Shown here piece after piece: positions 6,257 through 27,385 of a stretch of 64,000 nucleotides of DNA. A model generated the notes under the pieces. That model saw only the letters and a program-made list of their open reading frames with translations, did not search any database and was not told the DNA's origin. Both the position numbers and the translations under genes were made by a program. The stretch covers positions 1 through 64,000 of the forward strand of contig DASZZD010000032.1 of the NCBI GenBank assembly GCA_035545015.1, given 5' to 3'. Numbering within the stretch: position 1 is the stretch's first letter; each line of letters opens with the position of its first letter. The DNA comes from Phycisphaerae bacterium. GTDB lineage: Bacteria > Planctomycetota > Phycisphaerae > WQYP01.

Positions 6257-6365
6257 GGAGTAATTGGTAATTGCTAATCCGCTGTCGCGGGGGTCGGACG
6301 TGCCATTTGGAAAAAGCGTGCAGCGTCCCAATTACTCAATTAACGCAATTAACTTAATTACTCCC
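6257..6365. repeat. paired inverted clusters of TAATTGG-type heptamer repeats in an unusually long (183 nt) groES-groEL intergenic region
   Basis: GGAGTAATTGGTAATTGCTAATCC (6257-6280) and the inverted CCCAATTACTCAATTAACGCAATTAACTTAATTACTCC (6327-6365). Confidence 0.55.
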
Positions 6366-11172: not shown

Positions 11173-11432
11173 GGGGGAATCTCCGGAATGGAGAGTTATT
11201 TTAGCTGAGTGGGCGAGGCGGAGCGAGTTGAAAGTGAGGAAGGCGAGGAGGGATAAAGCGAGAAGGGCAAATGGCAAATGATGGCGGCGGGGGGAGGGGG
11301 CGCGCGGAGCGGGCGAGGGGGCGGGTGCGAGCGGGGGCACAGTGGATCCAGGGGGCGGAGCCCCTGGGCTTGAGTGGGAAGGAGGGAGGAGGTTGGCGAA
11401 GGCGGGGAGTTGGGTGGTGGGGAGCCAGCGCG

Positions 11433-11497
11433 GCGGGATGGCGGTGTGGGTTTGGAGGGGGACGTATGGCCAGAGCGCCAAGAGCGCCTGGGTTTTT
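11433..11497 (-). repeat. copy A of a conserved about 65 bp core repeat (extended similarity about 11270-11690) in the recQ 5' region, containing palindrome GGCGCtcttgGCGCC
   Basis: Reverse complement aligns at about 85-90% with 21521-21585 upstream of putA (aaaaacNNNggcgctcttggcgcYctggccatacNtNcccYtccaaNNccacaccgccaNcccgc). In frame it encodes ALLALWPYVPLQTHTA versus ALLAPWPYLPFQLHTA. Confidence 0.7.
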
Positions 11498-11636
11498 GGG
11501 GTTGGGTGGGCGCGGGCGGGTTTTGGGGAGTGGGATGGTGTTGGCGTGGCGATGAGGAGGGGGCGGAGGGAGGGGGGGCGTTTTGTGGCGGGAGGGGCGG
11601 TGGGATCGGTGGGTTCGGGCACGGGCGAGGCGTGGG

Positions 11637-11666
11637 GTAATTGGTAACTGGTAACTGGTAATTGGG
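11637..11666. repeat. tandem heptamers GGTAATT GGTAACT GGTAACT GGTAATT in the recQ leader / N-terminal extension
   Basis: Direct inspection. 30 nt, in frame (QLPVTSYQLP on the minus strand). Confidence 0.6.
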
Positions 11667-11946
11667 CGGCGGCGGCGGTGGTCATAGGCTTCTCCCTTTT
11701 GTCGGTTCCTCTGAAAGAGAGAACGTAAGGGGGGGCGGAAAGGTTCCCGAAAGGTTTGGATTTTTTTAGGGTCTGCGGGCGTTGGATGTAAGTGTTTTCA
11801 GGTGATGGGGTTGTGGGTGTAGCGTTTGGCGGATTCCACCGTCTTTCGATGGTCATCAGCGTTCGCCCCTTCCGCGTTTCACAGTGTTGGATGAACGAGC
11901 GTTGCAAGAGCTACGAGAATTCTTCGTTGAGTGAGGTCGTGCGCTG

Positions 11947-12522
11947 ATGCCAGTTCTGGTGCCGGGGGCGCATGTAATTGTGGCATCAAATCCGCTGTTG
12001 TCGCATCGCGTTGCATGGGCACTCGGAGAGGCCGGGTTTGAGAGGCGCGGGGAACTGGCGCGGTTGGTGATGACGATGCGAGGGGGTGACAGGCCGAAGA
12101 ATGCTCACGAGGAATTCAATGGTGTAAGCGTGATGGCTCGTTCGATGTGGGAGCCGTGGCTAATTTTCAGGAAGCCACTTGAGGGACGGGTGCAGGACAA
12201 TTTGAGGAAATGGCGTACGGGGGGGTTGCGTCGTCCCTCGATTGAAAGACCATTTGGGGACGTGATCAAATCGCATCCGACGCGTAAGGAGGAGCGAACA
12301 CTGGCGCCACATCCGAGTTTGAAGCCGCAGGCATTCTTGCGTCAAGTGGTGCGGGGGGTACTGCCGTTGGGTGAAGGGGCGGTGCTGGATCCATTCGCGG
12401 GGTCCGGATCGACGTTGGCGGCTGCGGAGGCAATGGGCTACCGGAGCGTCGGAGTTGAGAAGGACGGCACGTATATTGAGATGGCGCGGCGATCTATTCC
12501 ACGACTGGCGGCGTTTCGATAA
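11947..12522 (+). pseudogene. N-terminally truncated beta-class DNA (N6-adenine/N4-cytosine) methyltransferase fragment
   Basis: Has the beta-class motifs E.WLIFRKP, HP..KP and motif I LDPFAGSGSTLAAAEAMGYRSVGVE, but no DPPY catalytic motif. A stop lies immediately upstream of the ATG. G-ending codon style unlike neighbours. Confidence 0.6.
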
Positions 12523-12558
12523 AACGATATTATTATATTTTCGTGGCCGCCTACCTTT

Positions 12559-13111
12559 CTAATCACCAATACGTTTTATCGGAACTAAAGCCTCAAGAGG
12601 AGCGAGCCCTTTTACAACATTGTCAAACAAACTGGCATCTTCAAGGGAGGAGCTTAACACTATAAGCGAATCTCCTTCATGCTGGCTTTTCGCAAGACGA
12701 TCCTTAATCTCTATCCTCAAGCTGCAAAATCGAATCCCAGCTAGAACATCAGCTTGACGGTAAACAAATCTTGAAACTGCCCATCTCGCATAGACTGCGC
12801 TGCCGTTCGCCGCCGCAAATGTCAAGTAATTATCATCCCACCCAATGCGCAGGCCTTTTGGGTAATTCGCCTCAGAAACGCTCACTGGGTCGCCTTGACA
12901 GTAGCCCATGTAATCTCGCGGAAGCCAGAGCCTCAAACTTGCCGGAAATTCCATGCAAAGCTCGCCTCTTGAATTCATCACGGCAACGCCTTTCCATTAG
13001 CATAGTACGTGGTTTTCGCTTTAAGAGCGGGGTTGCTTTCAATTGTATATATCTCCCAGTTAGTAGTGTTTCCTCCGACTGGTTTACCATAATAAAGCGG
13101 ATTTTGGTCAA
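12559..13111 (-). pseudogene. frameshifted hypothetical gene in an AT-richer segment (candidate restriction-endonuclease remnant)
   Basis: Two overlapping minus-strand ORFs (13111-12872 and 12981-12559) in different frames within 12523-13130, a stretch clearly lower in GC than the rest of the window. No recognisable motif. Confidence 0.3.
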
Positions 13112-13133
13112 TTCGGCTCTGTAGAAAACCCCG

Positions 13134-13526
13134 TCAGGGGGCGTAAGAAATCATGAGGTTGTGGGTGAGGACCATGAGGCGGAGTTCCTGGTCCTGGGTG
13201 CGGCGGATGCAGGCCGCGACGGACTCGCCCTGGCGGCGTTTGATCATCGAGAAGCCGGTTTCCACCTGCACGCGACGCGTGTAGCCGCAGCGGCGCCGAG
13301 CGAGACTTGCGGTAAGGGTGTCCGAGAGCAGCCCGGACATGATTGCGGGACGTGTCATGTCGTCGAGGCGTTCGAGTCCTTTGCGAAGCAGCAGGGTGTT
13401 TACGTCGTAGAAGAAGTCGTAGACATCCTGCATCGCCATCAAGAAATCCTGGATTCGCAGGTTAAAAGGAAGTTTCAGGGATTTATTGAACCTGGTGGGA
13501 TCAGGCTCATTTCTGGCGATTGGCAT
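13134..13526 (-). mobile_element. IS4/IS5-superfamily transposase C-terminal fragment (IS remnant)
   Basis: C-terminal DDE-transposase signature ...YTRRVQVETGFSMIKRRQGESVAA..RLMVLTHNLMI (E followed by K/R 7 aa later). Only about 130 aa, no N-terminal domain. Confidence 0.55.
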
Positions 13527-13685
13527 AGCGGGGATTCTAGGGGGAGATTTGTTTCTTCACCAGTGGAGGGTTGTTCCGGCGTTGAAGGATGATGGAGCGG
13601 AAGAGGCGGATTGGCAGGGAGGATCGGCCGAGGGGACGGAGAGCCGGGGGAGCGTTTTCGCCTCTGTGCGGGGATCGGGGGGCGT

Positions 13686-14639
13686 TCAGTGTTGGGGGGA
13701 AGGGGTTTGGGGCACGGGCATGGGGGCGATGGTGCCGGGCATGGGGGAGGGGCGGGCGTTGGGGTCGATGCCGAGGCGTTGGTACATGGCGGGTGCGGCG
13801 GCTTTGGCGGCGGCGACCGCGGCTTTGTAGTCGAACTGGGGTTTGACGGGTCCGGTCACCGTGGCCTGGATGGGGCCTTTGTGGTGGAACATGGCTTCGA
13901 CGAGATAGCCCATATCGGCGTCGGGTTGCTTGCCGGCGCGGATCGATGCGGCGAGGGTTTTGTCATCGGCCATGAGGGTGTCGAAGGCGTCGAGGATCTG
14001 GCGTCCGTCGAAGGTGAGTTCGACGGCGTTCTGGCCGCTCTGGGTGAGGATGGTGGTGGAGGTGACTTCTCCGGGCAGGAGGAGGGTGGCGTCGACCTTG
14101 AGGAATTGAAGGTTGGTCTGGAGCCAGGGTTTGCGCTGGGCATACTCGGCCTTGCCCTGGGCGATGACCTGAGCGACCTGGGCATCGGAAAGTTTTTCGC
14201 CGCCGACGGGCGTCATGGCGGCGGTGTTGTTGGCGGGAGGCTTGAGGGTGAGGGTGTAGGCGCCCTTGTCGTCGCGGGCCCAGGCGTAGGTGAAGCGATT
14301 GTCGAGGCCGAGCTTGTTGATGTCGGGGAAGTAGGCGGTGCCGACGACGTGGGCGCGACCATCGGCGGTTTTTTCGACGACGAGGTTGCTCCAGACATCG
14401 ACGCCGGTGCTGTCCTGAACCATATTGGTGGCGATGCTTTTGGCGATGTCGAGGGCGTCGGGCTGGGAGGGGGAACCGGGCTCCTGCGGCGGCGGGGTGA
14501 CGTAGGTGTCGAGGGTCATTTTTCCGGAGCCATCGGGATTGAGCTGTCCGGTCTGGCGGCGTTCGAGACAGGCGGGGAGGGAGAGGGCGAGGGTGACGAG
14601 GAGGAGGGGGCGGGCGAGCGAGCGGAGATGGCGGGGCAT
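13686..14639 (-). CDS. secreted/lipoprotein, hypothetical (signal peptide, Pro-rich C-terminus)
   Basis: N-terminal MPRHLRSLARPLLLVTLALSLPACLE with a lipobox-like LPAC. Confidence 0.5.
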   Translation of the reverse strand: MPRHLRSLARPLLLVTLALSLPACLERRQTGQLNPDGSGKMTLDTYVTPPPQEPGSPSQPDALDIAKSIATNMVQDSTGVDVWSNLVVEKTADGRAHVVGTAYFPDINKLGLDNRFTYAWARDDKGAYTLTLKPPANNTAAMTPVGGEKLSDAQVAQVIAQGKAEYAQRKPWLQTNLQFLKVDATLLLPGEVTSTTILTQSGQNAVELTFDGRQILDAFDTLMADDKTLAASIRAGKQPDADMGYLVEAMFHHKGPIQATVTGPVKPQFDYKAAVAAAKAAAPAMYQRLGIDPNARPSPMPGTIAPMPVPQTPSPQH

Positions 14640-14667
14640 GAGTGCTCCTTTGCGGAGGCGGAGGGGT

Positions 14668-14779
14668 GGTAATTGGTAATTAGTAATTGGTAATTTGCTG
14701 GCGCATCAATGGGGGCCCCGTTCTCCGGCGACAGCCAATTACCAGTTACCAATTACCAGTTCCCATTACCAATTACCAC
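14668..14779. repeat. paired inverted clusters of GGTAATT heptamers (4 units, 39-nt spacer, 6 inverted units) between pilB2 3' end and the lipoprotein gene start
   Basis: GGTAATT GGTAATT AGTAATT GGTAATT and the inverted CAATTAC CAGTTAC CAATTAC CAGTTCC CATTACC AATTACC. Confidence 0.65.
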
Positions 14780-14780
14780 G

Positions 14781-16589
14781 TCAGTCTTCGACGATGGTTT
14801 GTTTAACGACTTCCTCGATGGTGGTGACGCCTTCGTAGATGCCCATGAGGCCGGAGGTGCGGAGGGTGCGCATGCCGCGTTTTTTGGAGGCTTCACGGAG
14901 GATGTTGGTGGAGGCGTGCTGCATGATCATGTCGCGGATTTCATCGTCGAAGAGCATGATTTCGTAGATGCCCAGGCGGCCGCGATAGCCGGTGTTGTTG
15001 CAGTTGTCGCAGCCGCGGCCGCGATGGAAAGTGCGTCCGCGGACGTCCTCGGGGAGGAGTTCGAGTTCCATGAGCTGCTCTTCGGTGGGCTGATATTCTT
15101 CCTTGCAGTGGGTGCAGATGCGGCGGACGAGGCGCTGGGCGATGACGCCCTCGACGGTGGCGGTGATGAGGAAGGGCTCGATGCCCAGATCGAGCATACG
15201 GGCGACGCTGGAGGGGGCGTCGTTGGTGTGGAGCGTGCTGAACACGAGGTGGCCGGTGAGAGAGGCCTGGACGGCGATGATGGCGGTTTCCTTGTCGCGG
15301 ATTTCGCCGACGAGGACGATATCGGGGTCCTGACGCAGGATGGAGCGGAGGCAGGAGGCGAAGGTGAGATCGATTTCGGGTTTGATCTGCACCTGGACGA
15401 TGCCGTCGATGTCGTATTCGACGGGGTCTTCGGTGGTGATGAGTTTGTCTTCGATGGAGTTGAGTTCGTTGAGAGCGGCGTAGAGGGTGGTGGTTTTACC
15501 GGAGCCGGTGGGCCCGGTGACGAGGACGATGCCGTTGGGTTTGTTGATGAGCTGGCGGAAGATCTTGAGGTCGTCATCGCGCATGCCGACCTTGTCGAGG
15601 TCGAGGGCGACGTTGCCGCGGTCGAGGATACGCATGACGACGGATTCGCCGAAGATGGTGGGGAGAACGGCGACGCGGAGGTCGATGGATTTTCCCTGGA
15701 CGATGAGGGGGATGCGGCCATCCTGGGGCATGCGGCGTTCGGCGATGTCGAGGTTGGCCATGACCTTGATACGGGAGACGATGGCCATGGCGATGGATTT
15801 GGGAGGCGGGACCATTTCGTAGAGGACGCCGTCGATGCGGTAACGCATTTTGAATTCATCTTCGAAGGGTTCGAAGTGGATGTCGGAGGCTTTTTCCTTG
15901 ATGGCCTGGAGGAGGACGGTGTTGAGGAGGCGTTTGACGGGGGTGGAGTCGGCGGCTTCCTTGAGGGTTTCGAGGTCGATGGATTCGCCGCGGCCTTCGA
16001 GGGCCTTGAGGGTTTCGTCGGTGCCGAGTTCGCCGAGGAGGGAGCTGATGGATTCCTTTTTGACGTCGTAATATTTTTGGAGCATGCGGTTGATGGCGTC
16101 GGGATCGGCGATGACGGGGACGATCTTGGCGCCGACGAGGGTGCGGAGGTCGTCGACGGCGCGGAAGTTGTCGGGCGAGGCGAGGGCGACTTTCAGCGAC
16201 TTGGTCTTGTCGTCAAATTCGACGGGGATGACCTTGTAGGAGGTGGCCATCTGTGCGGGGACTTTGGCGATGACGTTGGCGGGGATGTCCTTGCTGTCGA
16301 GCTCGTACATTTCGAAGCCCATCTGGGCGGCGAGGGCGATGTTGCGGTCGCGGTCGGTGATCATGCCGAGATCGACGAGGATCTGGCCGATGGGGGTGCG
16401 TTTGCCTTTTTTCTGCTGGTCGGCCTGGACGGTGAGGCCCTGGTGGACCTGCTCGCGGGTGAGCTTGCCCATCTTGATGAGGACGCGGCCGAGGGGACGG
16501 TCTTTGAGTTCGGAGATGGGGGGCATTTTGGGCACTCCGGTCGCGGGGGAGGGTGCGGCGGGACGGCTGGTGGGTTTGGCTTCGCTCAT
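14781..16589 (-). CDS. pilB: type IV pilus assembly / type II secretion ATPase (GspE/PilB family) with N-terminal MshEN-type domain
   Basis: Walker A LVTGPTGSGKTTTLYAALNELN and the tetracysteine CTHC..CDNC. The N-terminus carries two 24-residue MshEN-like motifs (PLGRVLIKMGKLTREQVHQGLTVQ and PIGQILVDLGMITDRDRNIALAAQ). Alternative start M22 at 16526 with a GGAG SD. Confidence 0.9.
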   Translation of the reverse strand: MSEAKPTSRPAAPSPATGVPKMPPISELKDRPLGRVLIKMGKLTREQVHQGLTVQADQQKKGKRTPIGQILVDLGMITDRDRNIALAAQMGFEMYELDSKDIPANVIAKVPAQMATSYKVIPVEFDDKTKSLKVALASPDNFRAVDDLRTLVGAKIVPVIADPDAINRMLQKYYDVKKESISSLLGELGTDETLKALEGRGESIDLETLKEAADSTPVKRLLNTVLLQAIKEKASDIHFEPFEDEFKMRYRIDGVLYEMVPPPKSIAMAIVSRIKVMANLDIAERRMPQDGRIPLIVQGKSIDLRVAVLPTIFGESVVMRILDRGNVALDLDKVGMRDDDLKIFRQLINKPNGIVLVTGPTGSGKTTTLYAALNELNSIEDKLITTEDPVEYDIDGIVQVQIKPEIDLTFASCLRSILRQDPDIVLVGEIRDKETAIIAVQASLTGHLVFSTLHTNDAPSSVARMLDLGIEPFLITATVEGVIAQRLVRRICTHCKEEYQPTEEQLMELELLPEDVRGRTFHRGRGCDNCNNTGYRGRLGIYEIMLFDDEIRDMIMQHASTNILREASKKRGMRTLRTSGLMGIYEGVTTIEEVVKQTIVED

Positions 16590-16603
16590 GGGTCACCGGA
16601 GGA

Positions 16604-16636
16604 AAAAGACGAAAGACGAAAGAAAGACGAAAGATG
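16604..16636. repeat. tandem heptamers AAAGACG x3-4 in the 56-nt pilT-pilB2 intergenic spacer
   Basis: ggaaaAAGACGAAAGACGAAAGAAAGACGAAAGATgggg, flanked by G-runs. Confidence 0.55.
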
Positions 16637-16645
16637 GGGAAGGGG

Positions 16646-17794
16646 TTACTTGGCGGCGCCGGGGCCGGGCTTTTCGGGGCCTTCTTTTTCGAGGTCGGGG
16701 CGATTGAGCTTGCGTGCGACGCCCATGCGTTCGGCGAGGTCTGCGGGGCGTCGGGCTTTGTCGACGGCTTCTTCGGCGGAGATTTTGCCGGCGTTGTAGA
16801 GTTCGAGGAGGTGGTCGTCGAGGAGCTGCATGCCGAACTTTTTGCCGGTCTGGATGGAGGAGTCGATACGGAAGGTTTTATTTTCGCGGATGAGGTTGGC
16901 GATGCCGGGGTTGTTCACCATGAACTCATAGGCGGCAATCATGCCGTCGGTATCGACGCGGGGACAGAGGGCCTGGGAGAGCACGGCGAGGAGTGTGCCG
17001 GAGAGCTGGACGCGGACCTGTTCCTGCTGGTCGGTGGGGAAGGCGTCGATGATGCGGTTGATGGTGCCCGAGGCGCCGGTGGTGTGGAGGGTGCCGAAGA
17101 CCAAGTGGCCGGTTTCAGCGGCCTGAATGGCGGCGGCGATGGTTTCGAGGTCGCGCATTTCGCCGACGAGAATCACGTCGGGGTCCTGGCGCAGGGCGCG
17201 GCGGAGGGCTTCGGAGAAGGTGGGGACGTCGCCGCCGATTTCGCGCTGGGTGATGATGGATTTTTTATGTTCGTGGTAGTACTCGAGGGGGTCTTCGGCG
17301 GTAATGATGTGGCGTTCGAAGTTGATGTTGATGTAGTTGATCATGGAGGCGAGGGTGGTGGTTTTGCCCGAGCCGGTGGGACCGGTGACGAGGAAGAGTC
17401 CGCGTGGCCGGCGGCAGAGTTCTTCGACGGCGTTGGGCAGGCCGATCTGCTCGAAGGTGAGCAGCTTGTAGGGGATTTTCCGCATGACGATGCCGATGTT
17501 GCCCTTCTGGCGGAAGACCGAGACGCGGAAGCGGGCGCGTGTGGAACCGTCGGCGGTGGAGAAGGCGAATCCGAAGTCGCAGGAGCCCATTTCCTGGAGT
17601 TCCTGCTGGGCGCGGTCGGGGGTGATGGCCTTCATGAGCGCGACGGTGTCGTCGGGCTCGAGGACCTTGGTGGCCAGATCGCGCAGGCCGCCATTGAGCC
17701 GGAGGACGGGTGGCCGCCCGACGGAGATATGGAGGTCGGAAGCGCCCTTCTTGATGGTAGTTTCGAGGAGACGATCAATTTGCAATGCAGACAT
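16646..17794 (-). CDS. pilT: twitching motility ATPase PilT
   Basis: 382 aa, LVTGPTGSGKTTTLASMINYIN, GIANLIRENK, typical PilT length and motifs. Confidence 0.92.
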   Translation of the reverse strand: MSALQIDRLLETTIKKGASDLHISVGRPPVLRLNGGLRDLATKVLEPDDTVALMKAITPDRAQQELQEMGSCDFGFAFSTADGSTRARFRVSVFRQKGNIGIVMRKIPYKLLTFEQIGLPNAVEELCRRPRGLFLVTGPTGSGKTTTLASMINYININFERHIITAEDPLEYYHEHKKSIITQREIGGDVPTFSEALRRALRQDPDVILVGEMRDLETIAAAIQAAETGHLVFGTLHTTGASGTINRIIDAFPTDQQEQVRVQLSGTLLAVLSQALCPRVDTDGMIAAYEFMVNNPGIANLIRENKTFRIDSSIQTGKKFGMQLLDDHLLELYNAGKISAEEAVDKARRPADLAERMGVARKLNRPDLEKEGPEKPGPGAAK

Positions 17795-17857
17795 ACCACG
17801 CCCTAAAAGACAGTTTTAACGGGAACGGAAGGCGCACGCCGCGCCGCACGGCCGGGG

Positions 17858-19579
17858 TCAATCCGCGACGACACCCTCTGCCTGGGTGACGCGAGCGATC
17901 TCGGCGGCGGTGGTGATTCCGTTGAGGATTTTGGTTTTGCCATCATCGAGCAGGGTTTTCATGCCGCTGGCGCGAGCGGCCTTGCGGATGACGTTGGAGG
18001 GCGCCCGTTTGAAGGCGAGCTCGCGGACTTCGTTGTTCATGGTCATCATTTCGAAGATGCCCTTGCGGCCGCGATAACCGGTGCCGTTGCAGTTGCCGCA
18101 GCCGACGGGTTTCATGAGGGTGCGGCCCTGGAGTTCGCGGTCGGAGATGCCGAGGATCGAGAGGAACTTGCGGTCGGGCTCGGGATCGGGGGCCTTGCAT
18201 TTTTCGCAGAGTGTGCGGACGAGCCGCTGGGCCATGACCGCCTGGATGGAAGAGGCGACGAGGAAGGGCTTGACGCCCATATCGATCAGACGGGTGATGG
18301 CGGAGGGGGCGTCGTTGGTGTGCAGGGTACTGAAGACCAGGTGGCCGGTGAGAGCGGCCTGGATGGCGACTTCGGCGACTTCGAGGTCGCGGATTTCACC
18401 GACGAGAATGATGTTGGGGGCCTGACGGAGCATGGAGCGGAGGATTTTGGCGAAGGAGAGGCCGATCTGTTCCTTCACCTGGCACTGGTTGATGCCGGCG
18501 AAGTTGTATTCGACGGGGTCTTCGGCGGTGATGATTTTGCGGTCGGGCTTGTTGAGTTCCTGGAGGGCGCCGTAGAGGGTGGTGGTTTTGCCGGAGCCGG
18601 TGGGTCCGGTGACCAGGAAGATGCCGTTGGGGCGGGCGATGATGCGTTTGAACTTGTTGTAATCTTCCTCTTCGAAGCCCATGGACTGGATGCCGATTTT
18701 CACGCTGTCGGGGCGGAGAATACGCAGTACGCACGATTCACCGTGATAGCCCGGGAGGGTGGAGACACGGAAATCGACGGGCTTGTCATCGACGGCCATC
18801 TTGATGCGGCCGTCCTGGGGCAGGCGTTTTTCGGCGATGTCCATGCCGGACATGATCTTGATGCGGGCGAGCACCGGGGCCTGCATGCGTTTGGGGATGT
18901 TGTCGCGCTCGACGCAGACGCCGTCGATGCGGTAGCGGACGCGCACGCGGTCCTTCATGGGTTCGATGTGAATATCCGAAGCGCGGGTCTTGACGGCTTC
19001 GGCGATGAGGGCGGTGACGAGCTTGATGATGGGAGCGTCGTCGCCGAGGGACTTCACGTCGATCGACGTGCCGCGGTCCATGGAAGCGCCGCGGTCGATG
19101 GAGCTGACGCGGCGGACGGCTTCGTCGATGGAGGCCTTTTCGGCGGAGAACATGCGTTCGATCTGGTGCTGGATTTTGCTCTTGACGCCGAGGCAGGTTT
19201 CGATCTTGGTATTGAGGCGGAACTTGAGGGCGTCGATGGTGTCGATATCGGTGGGGTCGCCGATGACGATGCGCAGGACGCCGTCGCGCTTGTCGAGGGG
19301 CAGGACCTGGTGCTTTTTGATGAGGTCGGGGGGGATGAGGTTGACGTTGGCGGTGGCCATGGCGCTCTTGTCGAGGTCGATGTACTCCATGTCGTACTGC
19401 ATGGCCAGAGCCTTGGTGACCTCTTCCTCGGAGGCGAGCTTGAGGTCGAGGACGACTTCGTGGAGGGGTTTTCGGGTTTTGGCGGCCTCATCCTGCGCTT
19501 TTTGGGCGTCGGCAGGCTTGAGAGAGCCCATTTCCCGGAGAATTTCGGTAATTTCGCTTCGTTTCCGCGCCATGACCAC
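17858..19579 (-). CDS. second GspE/PilB-family assembly ATPase (paralog, degenerate N-terminal MshEN motifs)
   Basis: LVTGPTGSGKTTTLYGALQELN, CEKC..CGNC. The N-terminal domain lacks the LG..G residues of the MshEN motif. Confidence 0.88.
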   Translation of the reverse strand: MVMARKRSEITEILREMGSLKPADAQKAQDEAAKTRKPLHEVVLDLKLASEEEVTKALAMQYDMEYIDLDKSAMATANVNLIPPDLIKKHQVLPLDKRDGVLRIVIGDPTDIDTIDALKFRLNTKIETCLGVKSKIQHQIERMFSAEKASIDEAVRRVSSIDRGASMDRGTSIDVKSLGDDAPIIKLVTALIAEAVKTRASDIHIEPMKDRVRVRYRIDGVCVERDNIPKRMQAPVLARIKIMSGMDIAEKRLPQDGRIKMAVDDKPVDFRVSTLPGYHGESCVLRILRPDSVKIGIQSMGFEEEDYNKFKRIIARPNGIFLVTGPTGSGKTTTLYGALQELNKPDRKIITAEDPVEYNFAGINQCQVKEQIGLSFAKILRSMLRQAPNIILVGEIRDLEVAEVAIQAALTGHLVFSTLHTNDAPSAITRLIDMGVKPFLVASSIQAVMAQRLVRTLCEKCKAPDPEPDRKFLSILGISDRELQGRTLMKPVGCGNCNGTGYRGRKGIFEMMTMNNEVRELAFKRAPSNVIRKAARASGMKTLLDDGKTKILNGITTAAEIARVTQAEGVVAD

Positions 19580-19858
19580 CTCGTTGTGCCGCCCGGCGCC
19601 GCGCTCTGCGGATGGAAATCCGCGAAGGCGAGCATGGGCCCGGACCGCCGGCTGGATGTCAATTACTCTGTACTGGAATGGTGACGCGCAGAGATTCTGT
19701 GGAACGCCATCATCTGACTTATCTTACGGAACAGTCTTACGCGGGGTCAAGGTGGAATATTGGGCTTGGTGAGGGGTTTTGGAGCCGGTTTGTGACCCCT
19801 GGAAGCGGTTTGACCGTCGGCCGGGGGAACCCATACACTCGGCGGGGATTGCTCAAGG

Positions 19859-20467
19859 ATGACCATGAAGCCGCTCCATTCCCGCACGTTCAGCCAGCTC
19901 ACCGATTTTCGTGCGGTCAGCCGCGGGAGCATGCAGGAACACCTGCGGCTGTATGAGGGGTACGTGGAGCGCTACAACCAGTTGGCGGGGTCTCTGGAGC
20001 GGCTGCGGCGTGCGGGCGCGGTGGAAGCGGGGGCGGATATCGAGAGCGTGAAGGTGGATTTGACCTTTGCGCTGGGGGCGGTGAAGAACCACGAGTTGTT
20101 TTTCGATGTGCTGGGGGCGGGGACGGAGGGCGCGGAGCCGGGCGGGGAACTGGGGGAGGGCATCCGGGCGGCGTTTGGGGCGTTCGGGCAATACGTGGCG
20201 GACCTGAAGCAGACGGCGATGATGGGGGCGGGATGGGCGTGGACGGCATATGACCTGGACCACGGGCACCTGTTCAACTATTGCGGGGCGCGCAACGGGA
20301 TGCCGGTGTGGAACGCGGTGCCGATCCTGGCGATCGATCTTTACGGGCACGCGTACTTTTATGATTTCGGGTCGAACAAGGGGTTGTACCTGGACGCGAT
20401 CGTGCAGAGCCTGGACTGGGGGCGGATCCAGCAGCGGTTCGCCGCGGCGCGGAGCCGGGCGTTCTGA
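19859..20467 (+). CDS. divergent Fe/Mn superoxide dismutase-like protein (paralog/xenolog)
   Basis: Retains the four metal ligand positions (H in MQEHLRLY, NHELFF, D and H in DLYGHAYFYDF) and Tyr34 (EGYV), but the N-terminal HH.KHH is degenerate. G-ending codons, unlike the adjacent canonical sodA. Confidence 0.6.
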   Translation: MTMKPLHSRTFSQLTDFRAVSRGSMQEHLRLYEGYVERYNQLAGSLERLRRAGAVEAGADIESVKVDLTFALGAVKNHELFFDVLGAGTEGAEPGGELGEGIRAAFGAFGQYVADLKQTAMMGAGWAWTAYDLDHGHLFNYCGARNGMPVWNAVPILAIDLYGHAYFYDFGSNKGLYLDAIVQSLDWGRIQQRFAAARSRAF

Positions 20468-20509
20468 CCTGCCGGATTCAGCCCCCCTGCCGATCGCAAC
20501 GTGGATCGC

Positions 20510-21160
20510 TTATTTGGCGGCGCTGAAGAGTTCGGCGGCGCGTTTCCAGTTGACCACTTCCCAGATGGCGGCGAGGTAATCGGGACGTTTGTTCTGGTAC
20601 TTGAGGTAATAGGCGTGTTCCCACACGTCGACGCCAAGGACGGGGGTCCCGTGCGCTGCGCCGGTGGGGGCGAGGACGTTTTCGGGCATGATGGGGTTGT
20701 CCTGGTTGGCGGTGGAGGTGATGGCGAGACCGCCGCCATTTTTGACGATCAGCCATGCCCAGCCGCTGCCGAAGCGTTTGCCGCCGGCTTCCTGGAACTT
20801 GGTTTTGAAGTCGGCGAAGGAACCGAAGGCGGATTTGATGGCCTCGGCGAGGGGGCCTGAGGGTTCACCGCCGCCACCATTGTTTTTGGGGGCCAGAAGC
20901 GTCCAGAAGAGCGAGTGGTTGACATGCCCGCCGCCGTTGTTGCGGACAGCGCCGCGGACGTCTTCGGGAACTGTGCCGAGATTCCGGATCAGTTCTTCGG
21001 CCGATTTGTTGGCCAGGTCGGGCTTGGAGGCGACGGCGTTGTTGAAATTGTTGACATAGGCCTGATGGTGCTTGCCATGGTGAATCTGCATGGTGGTGGC
21101 ATCGATGACCGGTTCGAGAGCGGAGGGTTCGTACGGCAGCGGCGGGAGGGTGGCAGGCAT
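20510..21160 (-). CDS. sodA: Fe/Mn superoxide dismutase
   Basis: [33 protein letters not shown]...[11 protein letters not shown]...[23 protein letters not shown] at 21160 ([10 protein letters not shown]). Confidence 0.93.
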
Positions 21161-21370
21161 GATCAATCCCCACGAAAAGACGGGTAAACCGCGCCCCAAA
21201 GGCAGGCCGTCGCGCGACGGCCCCGGGGTTTGGGGCGGAAGGTTGGTTATAGGAGCAGCGCGGCGGTGCGGTCAAGCGATGCGGGTGCAGGTGGGCACGG
21301 GGATTCTGTGGCAGATGACGGCAGTTGCCGCCGCAAAACGCGGCCGCCCCCCTACAACCCAATTTTTCCG

Positions 21371-21399
21371 TTGCATGTAAGCATTATGTTAGGTATAAT
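21371..21399 (+). promoter_or_regulatory. sigma70-type promoter TTGCAT-N17-TATAAT upstream of putA
   Basis: ttgcatGTAAGCATTATGTTAGGtataat in an AT-rich patch. An SD GGGAGAAGG and ATG 21426 follow within about 25 nt. Confidence 0.6.
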
Positions 21400-21425
21400 A
21401 CCTACCGCTCGCTGGGAGAAGGAAC

Positions 21426-24400
21426 ATGCCGACCACCCCCCCGTATCCCCCCCGTCCAACCTCCAGCCCTCCCACCCGCACCGCTCCCCCCGCGCCCAAC
21501 GCCTCTCCCACCCCCCCTGGCAAAAACGTGGCGCTCTTGGCGCCCTGGCCATACCTGCCCTTCCAACTCCACACCGCCAGCCCGCTGGCCACCACCGCCT
21601 CCCCACCGCGCCCCCCAAAGCCCGCTGCCTCCTACAATGACCCCAGACGCCCCCACAGAGGCCCCCCCATGCAACGCCACACCGCCACATCAGCCCCCCC
21701 CACCCCCCCCACCCCCCCCGCCGCCCACGCCCCCGCCCTCGAAGCCCGCACCCAATCCCTCGGCCGCGAACTCCTCGCCGCCTCCCGCGCCTCCCCAGCC
21801 TCCTCCCTCTCCAAAAAATTCTGGTCCGACAAACTCCTCGCCTTTGCCCTCCAAAATGAGCGCTTCAAAAACGAACTCTTCCGCTTCATCGATGTTTTCC
21901 CCGCCCTGCGCACGCCCGCGGCCATCAATCAGCATCTCCACGAGTATCTTCTCCGGCCGGATCTGTCGCTTCCCGCCGGCCTCTCGCTGGCGCTCAAGGC
22001 CGGCAACCTGCTCAAAGGCGCGCAAGCCTCCGCCCTCACCGCCCAGGTTCAATCCATGGCCCGTACGTTCATCGCCGGCCAAACGCTTGATGACGCATTG
22101 CCCGCCCTTGCCGCGCGCTGGGCGGAAGGAATTGCCTTCTCCGTGGACCTCCTGGGGGAAGCGGTCGTCTCGCACGCCGAGGCCCACGCATACCGCGCCC
22201 GCTACGATCAACTTCTAGACGCGCTTCCCAGCGCCGTCGCCGCCTGGCCGGCCAACCCGCTGCTCGACTCCGATCACCTTGGCCCCATCCCGCGCGCCAA
22301 CGTCTCGATCAAAATCTCCGCCCTCGACGGCCGCGTCACCCCAATCGATGCGGACGTTCCCGGCGGCACGCTGGACCGTCTCACCGAAGCGCTGGCCCCG
22401 CTGCTGGAAAAAGCCGCTCGCCACAACGTCCTCATCAACTTCGATATGGAAAGACACGCCCTGCACGAGCTCACGCTGCGCCTGTTCAAGCGCTGCTGCG
22501 AGCGTTTCGACTTTCCCGCAGGCCTTGCGCTCCAGTCCTATCTGAGGTCCGTTCACGAGGACGCCTCCGATCTCATCGCCTGGTCCAAGCGGCTCAATCG
22601 CCGCGTCACCGTGCGCCTGATCAAAGGCGCTTATTGGGATTACGAAACCATCCACGCACAAATGATGAACTGGCCCGCGCCGGTCTGGCCCCGCAAGCAT
22701 CTCACCGACGCCGCTTTTGAAAACACCGCGGCGCTTTTCCTGCGGAATACGCCGAACCGCGCCGGCGAGGGCGGCATCACCTTGGCTGTCGGCACGCACA
22801 ACGTGCGCTCCGTCGCCCGCACGCTCGCCCTCGCGGAACACTTCGATCTCCCGCCCAATGCCGTGGAATTTCAGGCGCTGCGCGGCATGGCCGACGATCT
22901 CAAACACGCGCTCGCGGCGCGTAAGCTGCGTGTCCGTGAATACGTTCCACTCGGCGACCTGATCCCCGGCATGGCCTACCTGGTGCGCCGGCTCTTGGAA
23001 AACACGTCCAACACCGGCTGGCTGCACGCGGACACAACTAGCGCCCCCGCCGAACAACTCCTCGCCTCGCCGCACATCGAGCAACCTGCCGCGATGCTCG
23101 AGGATTCACCCGCAAAACGAAGCAGTTTCCGCAATGAGCCGCTTCGCAATTTTTCACTGGCGCAGGTCCGCGGCGCATTTATGGAGGCGATTGCCGGCGC
23201 CGCTCTCCCGCGCGTCGAAAACAACACCACGCTGGAGACCGCCCAGCACATGGTGCGTTCCGCCACCGAAGCCTTCCCCGCCTGGCGCGACACCCCGGTC
23301 GACCAGCGCGCCGCCATCATCGAAGCGGCGGCGGATCGCCTGTCGAATGTCCGTGACACGCTGGCCGCAATGATCGTCAAGGAATCCCACAAAACCTGGC
23401 CCGAAGCCGACGCCGACGTCTGCGAAGCCATCGACTTCTGCCGCTACTACGCCCTCCACGCCCGCCTCCTGCAAAACCCCCACCGCACCGGCCCCGCCCT
23501 CACCGGCGAACGCAACGAGCTCCGCCACATTCCCCGCGGCCCCACCGCCGTCATCGCACCCTGGAACTTCCCCCTCTCCATCGCCACCGGCATGACCGTC
23601 GCCGCCCTCGTCACCGGCAACCCCGTCATCCTCAAACCCGCCGAGCAAACCCCCGCCATCGCCGCCGCCCTCGCCCACCACCTCCACGCCGCCGGCATCC
23701 CCAAAAACGTCCTCCACTTCTGCCCCGCCCCGGGCGAAACCGTCGGCGCCGCCCTCGTCCGCCACCCCCTCATCACCACCATCGCCTTCACCGGCTCCAA
23801 AACCGTCGGCCTCGATATCCTCCGCGCCGCCGCCGACACGCCCCCCGATGCGCCCTTCATCAAGCGCGTCGTCTGCGAAATGGGCGGTAAAAACGCCATG
23901 ATCGTCGACGACACCGCCGACCTCGACGACGCCGTCCTCGCCGTCCGCCACTCCGCCTTCTCCTACGCCGGCCAGAAATGCTCCGCCGGCTCGCGCCTGA
24001 TCCTCCTCGATTCCATCCACGACGCCTTCCTCGCCCGCCTCATCGAATCCACCCGCGCCCTTATCCTCGGCGACCCCCAAAACCCCTCCACCGACCTCGG
24101 CCCCGTCATCGACGCCGAAGCCGCCAATAAAATCCGCCGCTACATCGACATCGGCAAACAAGAAGCCACCCTCGCCTACCCGGACGATGACGCTGCCGAA
24201 ATCGAAAATCGAAAATTGAAAATTGAAAATGCGATTCCCCCTCACATCTTCACTAACGTCCCCGCCGACAGCCGACTCGCCACCGACGAAATCTTCGGCC
24301 CCGTCCTCGCCGTCCTCCGCGCCAAAGACTTCCCCCACGCCCTCCACCTCGCCAACCTCTCCGCCTACAAACTCACCGGCGGCCTCTTCTCCCGCACCCC

Positions 24401-24629
24401 CTCCCACATCGCCGCCGCCCGCAATCACTTCCTCGTCGGCAACCTCTACATCAACCGCTCCATCACCGGTGCCCTCGTCGAACGCCAGCCCTTCGGCGGC
24501 TTCGGCCTCTCCGGCGCAGGCTCCAAAGCCGGCGGACCCCACTACCTCCTCCACTTCACAGACCCCCAGGCCACCTCCGAATCCACCCTCCGCCACGGCT
24601 TCGCACCGGAGGTCACTTCAGATGACTGA
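21426..24629 (+). CDS. putA: bifunctional proline dehydrogenase / delta-1-pyrroline-5-carboxylate dehydrogenase PutA (with 81 aa Pro-rich N-terminal extension)
   Basis: PRODH arm/barrel region and aldehyde dehydrogenase motifs (VIAPWNFPLSIATGM, FTGSKTVG, CEMGGKNAMIV, GQKCSAGSRLIL). ATG 21426 has a strong SD and the promoter just upstream. Conventional core start ATG 21669 (MQRHT...). Confidence 0.9.
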   Translation: MPTTPPYPPRPTSSPPTRTAPPAPNASPTPPGKNVALLAPWPYLPFQLHTASPLATTASPPRPPKPAASYNDPRRPHRGPPMQRHTATSAPPTPPTPPAAHAPALEARTQSLGRELLAASRASPASSLSKKFWSDKLLAFALQNERFKNELFRFIDVFPALRTPAAINQHLHEYLLRPDLSLPAGLSLALKAGNLLKGAQASALTAQVQSMARTFIAGQTLDDALPALAARWAEGIAFSVDLLGEAVVSHAEAHAYRARYDQLLDALPSAVAAWPANPLLDSDHLGPIPRANVSIKISALDGRVTPIDADVPGGTLDRLTEALAPLLEKAARHNVLINFDMERHALHELTLRLFKRCCERFDFPAGLALQSYLRSVHEDASDLIAWSKRLNRRVTVRLIKGAYWDYETIHAQMMNWPAPVWPRKHLTDAAFENTAALFLRNTPNRAGEGGITLAVGTHNVRSVARTLALAEHFDLPPNAVEFQALRGMADDLKHALAARKLRVREYVPLGDLIPGMAYLVRRLLENTSNTGWLHADTTSAPAEQLLASPHIEQPAAMLEDSPAKRSSFRNEPLRNFSLAQVRGAFMEAIAGAALPRVENNTTLETAQHMVRSATEAFPAWRDTPVDQRAAIIEAAADRLSNVRDTLAAMIVKESHKTWPEADADVCEAIDFCRYYALHARLLQNPHRTGPALTGERNELRHIPRGPTAVIAPWNFPLSIATGMTVAALVTGNPVILKPAEQTPAIAAALAHHLHAAGIPKNVLHFCPAPGETVGAALVRHPLITTIAFTGSKTVGLDILRAAADTPPDAPFIKRVVCEMGGKNAMIVDDTADLDDAVLAVRHSAFSYAGQKCSAGSRLILLDSIHDAFLARLIESTRALILGDPQNPSTDLGPVIDAEAANKIRRYIDIGKQEATLAYPDDDAAEIENRKLKIENAIPPHIFTNVPADSRLATDEIFGPVLAVLRAKDFPHALHLANLSAYKLTGGLFSRTPSHIAAARNHFLVGNLYINRSITGALVERQPFGGFGLSGAGSKAGGPHYLLHFTDPQATSESTLRHGFAPEVTSDD
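21521..21585 (+). repeat. copy B of the conserved core repeat shared with the recQ 5' region (inverted orientation relative to copy A)
   Basis: See copy A (11433-11497). C-rich on the sense strand. Encodes ALLAPWPYLPFQLHTA within the PutA N-terminal extension. Confidence 0.7.
24198..24231. repeat. tandem heptamers GAAATC GAAAATC GAAAATT GAAAATT GAAAATG inserted in-frame in putA
   Basis: Encodes EIENRKLKIEN within the P5CDH domain. Low-GC patch inside an otherwise C3-rich gene. Confidence 0.6.
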
Positions 24630-24651
24630 ATTGGCTTGCCCCCAACATCCG

Positions 24652-26346: not shown

Positions 26347-26391
26347 CGCTGCTCCTTCCTAAAACCCGCCCGCCCCGAGGTTCCAGTCTCT

Positions 26392-27204
26392 TCATGCCGC
26401 GGTCGCCGGCGCCAGGTCCGGCAGATATTTTTCCCCCGAGACCACTTCCACCACGCCGTTGTCCTGCACGCCCACCACCATCACCGGCTCGCCCCGCGCC
26501 AGCGGCCGCTCCTCATAGCTTACCGCCGCCAGCTCCATCGTCCGCCCGTGCACCTTCACGAGCACCTTGCCCAGCCCGCCCTGATCCGCAGGAATGCTGA
26601 GATACACTTTTCCCAGCGCTCCCACAGCCTGTTCCATCTGAACCGTGCCGTCCTCATCCATATTGATCATGGCGGTAAAAATCGCCGCCACGATCATCAT
26701 CATTGCAAGTCCGGCTCCCAACGCAATGCCCAGCACGGCCGCGGTGGAAAAACCGCCCGCCGTGGCCGCCAGCCCCGCGAGGCCCAGCACCGTCGCACCC
26801 GCCACCAGTCCCTGGAAATTCAACAGGCTGTGGAGCCAGATCCACGCCGCCGAATCGCCGCCCGCCGGGAAAGCGTTCGCCGCATGCTGATGCGTCCGGT
26901 GCGCATGCGCTGCCGCCACCGCCGCGATCGCCTTGGCCTGCGGCGACAAGTGCGCCGGCGCTCCCTTCACCGCGGTCCCCGCCTTTGCGCCGTGCCCTCC
27001 CGCCCGATGCAGCGACGTGCGCAATCGTCCGCCGCCCTTTGCGCCCGCTCCGCCGCGCGCGCCATGATGACCCCACCCGCGACTCCCTCCGTGCCGCACG
27101 TGCGGACCATGATGCACCCCGATCGCCAGCGCGCTCAGCAGCGCCTGGACAACCACCAGCGCCCCGCCCCCGGCAGCACAGATCACGAGAAACATCCGTA
27201 ACAT
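26392..27204 (-). CDS. NfeD-family membrane protein (flotillin-associated), C-terminal OB-fold
   Basis: Multiple TM helices then GKVLVKVHGRTMELAAVSYEERPLARGEPVMVVGVQDNGVVEVV. Directly upstream of flotillin on the same strand (NfeD-flotillin operon arrangement). Confidence 0.7.
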   Translation of the reverse strand: MLRMFLVICAAGGGALVVVQALLSALAIGVHHGPHVRHGGSRGWGHHGARGGAGAKGGGRLRTSLHRAGGHGAKAGTAVKGAPAHLSPQAKAIAAVAAAHAHRTHQHAANAFPAGGDSAAWIWLHSLLNFQGLVAGATVLGLAGLAATAGGFSTAAVLGIALGAGLAMMMIVAAIFTAMINMDEDGTVQMEQAVGALGKVYLSIPADQGGLGKVLVKVHGRTMELAAVSYEERPLARGEPVMVVGVQDNGVVEVVSGEKYLPDLAPATAA

Positions 27205-27385
27205 CCCGACGTCCCTTTCTGGGAGCGCACCCCGTCAACGCCTCCATTATTGAGTACGCTTCCCCCCCACTCAACCCTTTTCTTTCATCTATCCATTACG
27301 CGATATTCCCGCCCCTTTCCCGCACCGCCGCAAACGCCCCCAAGCCATTTACCAATCCCGCCATACCCCCTACCATGGCTCTTCC

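Follow-up and report, generated by a model that had tools for sequence, protein, structure and literature searches.

Conserved sequence element in the 5' leaders of recQ, putA and other genes of uncultured Phycisphaerae: a probable RNA hairpin

Bacterial leaders can act through a nascent peptide, as in leader-peptide attenuators and ribosome-arrest peptides such as trpL/hisL, TnaC and SecM. Known arrest peptides contain W and P. Rho-dependent attenuation occurs at C-rich, G-poor, rut-like leaders, including those of enterobacterial mgtA, corA and rho. Other leaders contain orphan cis-regulatory RNA motifs (Rfam-type 5'-UTR hairpins, ligand unknown), and intergenic regions can carry small dispersed palindromic repeats, such as those of the REP/BIME type. 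The element described here, a common sequence of ~60-70 nt, lies ahead of recQ and putA in a contig of a Phycisphaerae bacterium (the window: 64,000 nt, the whole stretch analysed).

The element resembles each of these systems in part. Like the orphan leader motifs, it is short, has complementary invariant blocks and a variable loop, and is found in the sense orientation in several 5' leaders of one lineage. Unlike them, it has no Rfam family match (E up to 10), shows no covariation, is present in five copies only, precedes unrelated genes and is known here from sequence alone. Like REP/BIME repeats, it is an imperfect palindrome of tens of bases, found between genes in several copies per genome and patchily among relatives. 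In contrast to those repeats, it is very low in copy number in the DNA examined, lies in 5' leaders rather than between convergent 3' ends, and has a single orientation to the gene, and no RAYT-type transposase or clustered arrays were seen. The leaders share with attenuators and arrest peptides a promoter-proximal Shine-Dalgarno sequence (SD) and ATG, an ORF, and a W/P motif at constant frame overlapping a potential RNA hairpin. However, they lack both a defined stop codon and a terminator/antiterminator pair, the ORF enters the main gene in or out of frame, and the element is conserved as nucleotides without synonymous variation, with one copy in a different frame. Similarly, the leaders look like Rho-attenuated ones (250-550 nt, ~55% C, ~12-14% G, few structured islands), but nearly all sense strands of this genome are C-rich, so this composition is not specific to leaders.

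The two copies in the window are:
11422-11506, minus strand: copy A, recQ leader (covariance model 98.6 bits, E 1.9e-20; also repeat finder, five-copy alignment and consensus fold)
21512-21596, plus strand: copy B, putA leader (covariance model 94.9 bits, E 1.3e-19)

The repeat finder reported an inverted pair at 11433-11496 (minus) and 21522-21585 (plus), 64 nt long, 10,025 nt apart and 84% identical (83% over the 65 nt delimited in an earlier note on this DNA). Their local alignment score of 92 exceeds that of dinucleotide shuffles (37.0 +/- 5.2, maximum 69), and a 25-nt word of the core has exactly two occurrences in the window and none in 100 shuffles. The repeat that the note had proposed is thus genuine, and these comparisons support the presence of a conserved element ahead of both recQ and putA. 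The palindrome ascribed to the core is also there: GGCGC-tcttg-GCGCC is perfect in the putA copy, and the recQ copy ends in GCGCT, which would give a G-U pair in RNA. The weaker similarity said to extend over 200-250 bp is a matter of composition only. Without the core, the alignment score is 24 for the left flank and 19 for the right, lower than the averages for shuffled sequence (31.5 and 23.8), and the collinear words common to both copies beyond the core are low-complexity sequence.

A search for further copies of the core, as the note had suggested, found three outside the window (B', C and D), so that five are known at four non-homologous positions in two genomes. Copies B' (contig L062, 641-725) and C (contig L001) are both in the metagenome-assembled genome (MAG) SMAG_U6078. 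B' is the orthologue of B, in the putA leader of this related MAG (PutA identity 82%), and C is in the leader of an unrelated gene. Copy D (contig L071) is in an assembly 99.82% identical to the window; its leader is a ~290-nt paralogue of the entire putA leader, ahead of a beta-lactamase-family gene. All five copies are upstream of a gene in the sense orientation, and the downstream genes (recQ, putA, the beta-lactamase-family gene and an uncharacterised membrane protein) have no evident common theme. The core is nearly invariant, the surrounding recQ leader is unalignable, and the putA leaders outside the core are ~23% diverged, with indels.

This distribution could reflect a selfish or neutral dispersed repeat, that is, a small imperfect palindrome, REP/MITE-like or segmentally duplicated, with no regulatory role. 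Among recQ leaders, only that of the window has the element, which is absent from four orthologous recQ loci; copies A and C are ~90% identical despite different genes and different genomes; D is a segmental paralogue of the putA leader; and the core is palindromic. We nevertheless consider this explanation doubtful. Copies are few (the five, and no others, in ~270 kb of lineage DNA), with one exact match among representative genomes of 185,579 species and no real one in a metagenome collection. They are always sense and in 5' leaders, and neither terminal inverted repeats nor target duplications were seen, nor a transposase close by. Moreover, invariance falls on the same positions in every copy, even in the orthologues with diverged leaders, which argues for constraint rather than recent spread.

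The recQ side of the window contains:
8758-11172, minus strand: recQ coding sequence, 804 aa, ATG 11172-11170 with GGAG just before it, start as annotated by NCBI
11173-11757, minus strand: recQ leader, C-rich, G-poor and stop-free in every frame
11757-11719, minus strand: ECF-like promoter motif GGGAAC-N17-CGTTCTC
11696-11689, minus strand: GGGAGAAG, followed by ATG at 11685-11683
11675-11636, minus strand: heptad array TTACCAG/TTACCAA
11497-11493, minus strand: A-tract of copy A
11488-11432, minus strand: interrupted hairpin of copy A (5' arm GGCG/UUGGCG/UGG; 3' arm CCA/CGCCAU/CGCC)
11469-11450, minus strand: variable 20-nt loop of copy A

The ECF-like motif is also found in contig L057 and, in the opposite orientation, in L058 and L059.

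The earlier note read the two copies as coding modules, proline/threonine-rich N-terminal extensions of RecQ and PutA, whose inverted arrangement would permit inversion of the 10-kb segment between them. Two SD-ATG contexts do exist (GGGAGAAGcctATG at 11696-11683, minus; GGGAGAAGGaacATG at 21414-21428, plus), and in the window both ATGs are in frame with recQ and putA and have good SD sequences. However, they are 197 and 104 nt upstream of the core, outside the recQ-putA similarity, and do not belong to the repeat. Because the leaders are C-rich, stop codons are absent from all three sense frames of both, so in-frame continuity is little informative.

RecQ and PutA start at the downstream ATGs in NCBI and JGI gene calls and in all close homologues. 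The recQ product is 100% identical to P0001, the 804-aa RecQ of the NCBI annotation, and its start and SD are kept in L057, L058 and L070. The PutA orthologue P0122 starts at the homologous ATG (L062 position 797). Close RecQ homologues (at least 60% identity) have 668-814 aa; the PutA homologues listed have 901-1066 aa, the five most similar falling within 974-987 aa. Both N-termini, MTTA(V/A)E and M(Q/P)RH, are conserved, each with its own SD, and in the long ORFs the Pfam domains start at residue 204 (recQ) and PutA_N at residue 106 (putA).

The leaders also lack a codon signature. Substitutions between the putA leader and its orthologue are spread evenly over codon positions (21/17/18, vs 118/66/284 in putA itself), which counts against coding. 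Codon periodicity gives a chi2 of 17.1 for the recQ leader, vs a minimum of 75.1 in coding windows of equal length, and of 7.8 for the putA leader, again lower than in any coding window of its length. Leader indels are not multiples of three, and in L062 translation from the upstream ATG (251 nt) would continue for 409 codons in a frame other than that of putA. No protein of 5.8 billion has three 5-residue words in common with a 50-aa query centred on the ALLALWPY motif for which the note had proposed a search. Together with the four recQ loci that lack the element, these comparisons show that neither the RecQ nor the PutA protein includes it.

Inversion is unlikely because the two arms have no exact match longer than 14 nt; RecA-type recombination needs far more than 84% identity or a 14-nt exact run. 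Gene order and orientation are also unchanged in the related contigs available: SOD-pilB-pilT-pilB-hyp-recQ has the same relative orientation in L057, the SOD-putA orientation is unchanged in a 96%-identical strain, and contig L002 is collinear with the window. The model of coding modules and inversion is largely refuted, and we give it almost no weight.

The putA side of the window contains:
21371-21399, plus strand: putative sigma-70-like promoter, TTGCAT (21371-21376), 17 nt, TATAAT (21394-21399)
21414-21428, plus strand: leader-head motif GGGAGAAGG (SD-like) with ATG (21426-21428)
21498-21510, plus strand: conserved leader block 5 (CAACGCCTCTCCCA), candidate partner of the leader-head motif, from a three-way alignment
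21522-21526 and 21530-21586, plus strand: A-tract and interrupted hairpin of copy B
21627-21661, plus strand: conserved leader block 8, including the putA SD GAGG (21658-21661) and an upstream GCCUC, from alignments
21669-24629, plus strand: putA coding sequence, 986 aa, ATG 21669

A second possibility is that the leader encodes a free peptide. The conserved SD-ATG just past the promoter would start translation of the C-rich, proline-codon-rich leader, and the nascent motif ALLALW(P/R)(Y/H)xP(L/F)QxHTA would pause or arrest the ribosome, coupling translation to Rho access or downstream expression. As claimed, the SD-like sequence and ATG recur at the head of such leaders: GGGAGAAG-N5-7-ATG has only three occurrences in ~130 kb, every one heading a leader. 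The leader-head motif is seen again in the recQ leader and in the lepA leader of L058, and is kept with copies B, B' (L062) and D (L071). In four of the five copies the element is in the same frame relative to the conserved SD-ATG (offsets from ATG to element of 197, 104, 113 and 98 nt, all 2 mod 3; chance ~1/27), despite intervening indels whose lengths are not divisible by three. This constant frame would not be expected if the leaders were purely non-coding. The ORF in D is free-standing (99 codons), and the motif has W and P.

Still, a leader peptide seems unlikely to us. Third-position changes are not in excess inside the element; in GCGCTCTTGGCGC + CTGG, 17 of 18 consecutive bases are invariant, the sole variable base is a second codon position, and there are no synonymous changes in five copies. 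The only SD-ATG of copy C is in another frame, and this copy has a 1-nt deletion and a 1-nt insertion within the motif. Nor do the ORFs end in a consistent way: those of the window run in frame into recQ and putA, that of L062 runs out of frame into putA, and that of D is free-standing. The SD-like head may alternatively be a helix arm whose predicted partner is UCUCCCA (21504-21510); one pair of this helix shows a compensatory change (U-A in the window vs C-G in L062 and L071). Block 5 lies at offsets of 71 (B), 81 (B') and 67 (D) from the leader ATG, three different frames, so its conservation is at the nucleotide and not the peptide level.

We favour the reading that the repeat is a nucleotide-level cis-element of ~60-85 nt, always sense in long C-rich, G-poor 5' leaders, and that it acts as a hairpin operator in the leader RNA; we put the probability of this at about 0.5. 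From the promoter-like motifs and strand composition, we infer that the leaders are transcribed. The invariant blocks GGCGCUCUUGGCGCYCUGG and CCACACCGCCA..CCGCC could pair into a 13-bp interrupted hairpin that encloses a freely varying loop of 20 nt; an A-tract, identical in all five copies, comes before it in the RNA. Three helices with 13 pairs make up the consensus fold, and 98% of cells are paired vs 31-54% with the partners slid. Variable columns are concentrated outside the stems (2/26 paired vs 13/31 unpaired; Fisher p = 0.006), and the two that are paired give G-C/G-U and U-A/U-G. There is no covariation across the five copies because the stems never vary. Folding energies are no better than those of shuffles (z = -0.4 to -2.3), and a competing local hairpin, GGCGC-UCUUG-GCGCY, is possible. 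In a C-rich context, any G-rich block will find partners. On balance, the repeat is conserved as nucleic acid, and probably as an RNA hairpin.

The invariant blocks could also be read on the other strand or as DNA. In the first case, the reversed hairpin followed after 2-4 nt by four or five T would end antisense transcripts entering the promoter region. A scan flagged 21544-21530 (minus) as GGCGCCAAGAGCGCC + ACGTTTTTGC, the A-tract that would supply the T-run is invariant, and an ECF-like promoter motif in L071 faces the element from the antisense side. This is improbable, as the antisense strand has no gene or ORF ending at this point, terminator-like sites show no enrichment (14 vs 12.2 expected), CAAAAC words are common across these leaders, and in four of the five copies the antisense strand has an A-C mismatch where the local stem should close. 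Furthermore, the bona fide terminators that follow groEL in this lineage combine a perfect stem of >10 bp with a long U-rich tract (7 consecutive T in L058; TTCTTTTT in L057), whereas the element has an interrupted stem and 4-5 T. We see equally little prospect for a transcription factor or site-specific recombinase binding the DNA at the tandem 9-mers TGGCGCTCT TGGCGCTCT or the GGCGC/GCGCC palindrome. Both are invariant, and leader units are located at synteny breakpoints, but the breakpoints are at the edges of the whole leader unit and not within the element, and no recombinase gene is adjacent. At ~57 nt plus the A-tract, the conserved span is rather large for an operator; it is also sense in every copy, and the putative promoters are 100-200 nt upstream of it.

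Several blocks of the putA-type leader are conserved besides the element. The promoter is kept in relatives (TTGAAT-17-TATAAT in L062, TTGCTT-17-TATAAT in L071), the GGGAGAAG-ATG head could pair with the UCUCCC block, and block 8 is predicted to form a GCCUC/GAGGC helix that could mask the putA SD. Together, the promoter, head pairing, element and SD-masking block suggest a structured regulatory leader.

We postulate that the hairpin is a shared post-transcriptional operator, serving as a structured landmark or as the site at which a protein or small RNA binds. The leader is otherwise unstructured and Rho-friendly, and in it the hairpin could influence read-through, the stability of the mRNA or how accessible the downstream ribosome-binding site is. 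In the sequence collections searched, the element is restricted to one narrow lineage, a small group of uncultured Phycisphaerae, in which such an operator may be shared by genes as different as recQ and putA.

Comparison of the two upstream regions confirmed that a conserved core precedes both recQ and putA. The inverted pair 11433-11496 / 21522-21585 (64 nt, 84% complementary, spacing 10,025 nt) was the sole pair of note returned by the repeat finder. The 25-nt core word GGCGCTCTTGGCGCYCTGGCCATAC occurs exactly twice in the window and not at all in 100 shuffles, and aligning the sequences upstream of the two genes locally gives a score of 92, compared to 37.0 +/- 5.2 for dinucleotide shuffles. 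The earlier note had also described weaker similarity over 200-250 bp. With the core removed, however, the flanks score 24 and 19, below the shuffled means of 31.5 and 23.8, respectively, and the only collinear shared words of at least 9 nt are three pieces of the core (14, 10 and 11 nt). Thus, the core is real and the wider similarity is due to composition.

The same composition affects how reading frames in this region should be viewed. The G+C content of the window is 57-68%, and sense strands are strongly richer in C than in G. In parts of the window (e.g., 1-4000, 10001-12000 and 22001-28000), the GC-skew of gene and leader sense strands reaches a magnitude of ~0.3-0.4, so leaders and many alternative frames are free of stops and long spurious ORFs appear on both strands. 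The two Shine-Dalgarno (SD)-like contexts and in-frame ATGs are present as described earlier. Neither upstream region contains a stop codon in any of its three sense frames, and being "in frame" is therefore a one-in-three event. A home-made gene caller was dropped after it mis-assigned strands in G-rich antisense regions, as was a composition filter for C-rich stretches, which was too dependent on its threshold.

A search for further copies of the element found three (B', C and D) besides the pair in the window.

Copies of the element (~60-85 nt)
11422..11506 (-): copy A, recQ leader of the window
21512..21596 (+): copy B, putA leader of the window
641-725 of locus L062: copy B', putA leader of MAG SMAG_U6078 (GCA_035548175.1)
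Locus L001: copy C, also in MAG SMAG_U6078
Locus L071: copy D, assembly GCA_964631025.1

Copy C was the one site found by an exact-word scan of representative genomes of 185,579 species. It lies in a Phycisphaerae MAG whose RecQ and PutA are 79% and 82% identical to those of the window, and the gene downstream encodes an uncharacterised membrane protein (a "Wzz-like" label was withdrawn, as Pfam gave nothing). The putA gene of this MAG has an orthologous leader with copy B', and the same sequence is found in two other assemblies. A profile of the antisense-frame translation, run against 1.84 billion proteins, recovered two spurious small ORFs, one on the leader of putA in a strain whose PutA is 96% identical and one that led to L071. 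The recQ contig of the assembly containing L071 matches the window at 99.82% identity. Copy D is part of a ~290-nt paralogue of the whole putA-type leader, including the promoter, GGGAGAAAGAACATG, the conserved leader block 5 (21498..21510 in the window), the element and most of block 8 (21627..21661). It is 78.5% identical to B and 77.1% identical to B', and is followed by a gene of the beta-lactamase family.

Other searches gave nothing more. The element is absent from four orthologous recQ loci (L057, L058/L059, L060 and L070; RecQ 69-80%), and outside the promoter motif and the start region no alignment is possible between the recQ leader of the window and that of L057. More distant putA genes (72-76%) have no leader; they start ~36-50 nt after the gene before them, which is ahpC in L065-L069. 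Neither nhmmer at maximum sensitivity nor a covariance model found additional copies, whether in the window itself or across ~205 kb from related loci; covariance-model matches of 17-19 bits in the recQ coding sequence (LALIEKTWGY; window 11067-11111, L057, L060, L061 and L070) were judged to be chance. A metagenome scan with a 20-base core word gave 54 matches, all unrelated and most in one conserved coding context (...VLQALLARWPNVPKVDL...), which we take to be pantothenate kinase. There was no match to the element in viral contigs or in plasmids. Within the window, the element word CCACACCGCCA (21569-21579) is found again at the very start of putA (21677-21687; ATGCAACGCCACACCGCCACA), probably by chance. 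Several assemblies end in or beside these leaders (L061, L062 and the start of L001); L061 begins 121 nt upstream of recQ, and the end of L062, ~530 nt upstream of the putA promoter, carries an apparent C-terminal part of a transposase gene.

The five known copies occupy four non-homologous positions in ~270 kb of lineage DNA, and all are in the sense orientation, upstream of genes and downstream of promoter-like motifs. It is unlikely that they represent a functionless dispersed repeat. As a REP- or MITE-like element, it would have only five copies in ~270 kb, all sense; the exact-word scans added a single site outside the window (copy C), and neither terminal inverted repeats nor target duplications were seen.

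The earlier note had interpreted the shared sequence as a proline-rich N-terminal module of RecQ and PutA, and this was not borne out. In the long ORFs, the first RecQ domain of Pfam begins at residue 204 and PutA_N at residue 106. The source's own RecQ record (NCBI, Phycisphaerae MAG) is 804 aa and starts at the ATG at 11172, and close RecQ homologues (at least 60% identity) are 668-814 aa, none with the extension. Among the PutA homologues listed (901-1066 aa), the five closest are 974-987 aa and lack the extension, and an orthologue with 82% identity starts at the ATG homologous to 21669. At three related loci, recQ keeps its start together with the GGAG and an MTTA(V/A)E N-terminus, in upstream DNA that is otherwise unrelated. 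In addition to the four recQ loci without the element, the leader ATG of L062 is out of frame: it lies 251 nt (2 mod 3) from the putA ATG and opens 409 codons that are read out of frame across putA.

The pattern of substitution also differs between leader and gene. When the window is compared to L062, 118, 66 and 284 substitutions fall at codon positions 1, 2 and 3 of the putA coding sequence (83.8% amino-acid identity), whereas the leader (241 aligned positions) has 21, 17 and 18, along with indels of 4, 6, 1 and 1 nt. The codon-position composition of both "extensions" is nearly flat (chi2 17.1 and 7.8), below the minimum for coding windows of equal length (75.1 and 13.1). The conserved block CAACGCC is in a different frame in each of B, B' and D, and copy C has lost one nucleotide and gained one within the "peptide", with its sole SD-ATG in another frame. 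Variable columns of the element are spread over codon positions 1, 2 and 3 as 5, 6 and 3. In GCGCTCTTGGCGC + CTGG, 17 of 18 consecutive bases are unchanged in five copies, and the lone variable base, which separates the two, is at a second codon position. A search of 5.8 billion proteins with a 50-aa query around ALLALWPY found none sharing three 5-residue words. We conclude from these comparisons that conservation of the element is at the level of nucleic acid, and that it is no conserved domain of either protein. Where the sense strands of a genome are rich in C, long in-frame "extensions" ahead of genes lack stops because of composition, and annotators should not take them for protein domains.

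Inversion of the segment between copies A and B, also proposed earlier, is not supported. Arms that are 84% identical with no exact run longer than 14 nt are poor substrates for homologous recombination, and none of ten ORFs scanned between and around the arms has a recombinase domain. The order and orientation of SOD-pilB-pilT-pilB-hyp-recQ are the same in L057, the SOD-putA arrangement is the same in the 96% strain, and contig L002 is collinear with the window, so that related contigs have a single orientation. Synteny breaks at the edges of the whole leader unit and not inside the element. The combined model of protein modules and an invertible segment has almost no remaining likelihood.

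Several other features of this segment are worth recording. The pilT gene lies between two paralogous pilB-type ATPase genes (14781-16589 and 17858-19579, both -), which share 71-83% identity in several stretches and are the source of direct-repeat families D1-D6. The recQ promoter motif is separated from the hypothetical gene (13686-14639, -) by ~1.9 kb (~11760-13686) containing an N6/N4 DNA methylase fragment (11947-12522, +). This stretch is absent from the syntenic L057 and L070, where the gap is only 357 and 249 nt. The neighbours of putA form a recurring link of proline catabolism with oxidative-stress genes: putA adjoins divergent Fe/Mn superoxide dismutase genes in the window (21160-21669) and in the 96%-PutA strain, and lies 36 nt after ahpC in distant relatives (L065-L069). 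A gene of the Band_7 family, convergent with putA, contains a tandem 66-nt repeat (25441-25572; 77% identical).

The five copies have a common anatomy. Each has an A-tract and the block GGCGCUCUUGGCGCYCUGGC, which is a tandem 9-mer, as well as a stretch of 20 nt with both substitutions and indels, and invariant CCACACCGCCA + CCGC. The predicted consensus fold has 13 pairs (GGCG/CGCC + UUGGCG/CGCCAA + UGG/CCA), and 98% of cells are paired under it, compared to 31-54% when the partners are slid. Variable columns make up 2 of 26 paired and 13 of 31 unpaired positions (p = 0.006). Eleven of the pairs never vary and two vary on one side only; since the stems do not vary, the lack of covariation cannot speak either way. 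Folding energies are ordinary, with unremarkable z-scores on both strands, and thermodynamics thus neither supports nor excludes the hairpin. A local hairpin, GGCGC/GCGCY, competes with the consensus fold. Rfam had nothing at gathering thresholds in the 64 kb, and only chance-level matches in two regions at E up to 10. The putA-type leader has other recognizable parts:

Parts of the putA-type leader
TTGCAT-17-TATAAT: promoter-like motif
GGGAGAAG-ATG: leader head, predicted to pair with UCUCCC, with one compensatory change (U-A to C-G)
Block with the putA SD: a nearby GCCUC is predicted to be able to mask the SD

We conclude that the element is real and restricted to this lineage, and that comparison of its copies places its conservation at the nucleotide level in 5' leaders. 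We suspect, with a probability of about one half, that it is an RNA hairpin serving as a shared post-transcriptional operator. It would then be a further example of the orphan leader motifs. Read on the antisense strand, the hairpin precedes a run of T4-5, and a scan flagged it as terminator-like. The stem and T4-5 would suit an intrinsic terminator of antisense transcription, but no transcription unit ends there and the interrupted stem is much weaker than the groEL terminators of relatives; we consider this role very improbable. A DNA-binding site is similarly improbable. LexA- and OxyR-box readings were dropped, as the motifs do not match, and so was an attC/integron reading (no integrase, wrong arrangement).

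The position of the element relative to the leader ATG is a small unexplained signal. In A, B, B' and D, the two are 197, 104, 113 and 98 nt apart, respectively, in each case 2 mod 3, and this shared offset, with a chance of ~1 in 27, is kept although frames drift over the intervening sequence. Only three instances of GGGAGAAG-N5-7-ATG are present in ~130 kb (recQ and putA of the window and lepA of L058), each located where a long leader begins, directly behind a promoter-like motif. GGGAGAA(G/A)-N5-7-ATG stands at the start of several long C-rich leaders, ~12-45 nt after a promoter-like motif; the ORF that it opens in L058 overlaps lepA out of frame for 367 codons.

Sites of GGGAGAA(G/A)-N5-7-ATG
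Window: 11696-11683 (-); 21414-21428 (+)
Relatives: L058 ~9693-9676 (-); L062 534-548; L071 ~4016-4000 (-)

A translated leader with an arrest-like motif would account for the ribosome-binding site and ATG with a constant frame in A, B, B' and D (four of five copies). Its stop is undefined, the copies show no synonymous variation, and the frame of copy C differs; we regard this reading as rather unlikely. It is quite improbable, though we can speculate, that these leaders are a new kind of translated attenuator. The SD-ATG right after the promoter would send ribosomes into a stop-free, Rho-friendly C-rich leader full of proline codons. There, the element would act at once as an RNA hairpin and as a nascent-peptide motif (ALLALW..P.Q.HTA) whose frame is kept. 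The advance of the ribosomes, set by the supply of proline-tRNA or EF-P or by arrest at the motif, would then decide whether Rho or RNases reach the transcript. If so, the proline-catabolic gene putA would carry a proline-sensing switch, and the same module would be reused on recQ and other genes.

Two further motifs were observed around these leaders. Heptad arrays of AATTACC/AGTTACC gave 11 matches, compared to 0.03 expected. One array is within the recQ leader. Two others, (GGTAATT)n ... (AATTACC)n, face each other in the interval from the pilB stop codon to the next gene and would fold into a long hairpin. A promoter motif of ECF-sigma-like type, AACYTTT..GGGAACYTTTCC-N-CGTTCTC (GGAAC-N17-CGT), is also conserved; it precedes the recQ leader both in the window and in L057, but points towards lepA in SMAG_U6078.

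Other motifs
Heptad arrays: window 11636-11675 (-), 14668-14697 (-), 14735-14777 (+) and 6259-6274 (-); L057 8665-8676
ECF-sigma-like motif: window 11757-11719 (-); L057 9665-9712 (+); L058 ~9775-9730 (-); L059 245-256 (-)
Variants of the ECF-sigma-like motif: L071 ~3735-3775 (+); L062 ~145-175

A literature search for work on planctomycete promoters or leaders gave nothing relevant. If the element is functional, it would be an undescribed leader motif in Phycisphaerae, within Planctomycetota, a phylum with almost no characterised post-transcriptional regulation, and it would offer a way into the C-rich and unusually long 5' leaders found in this lineage.
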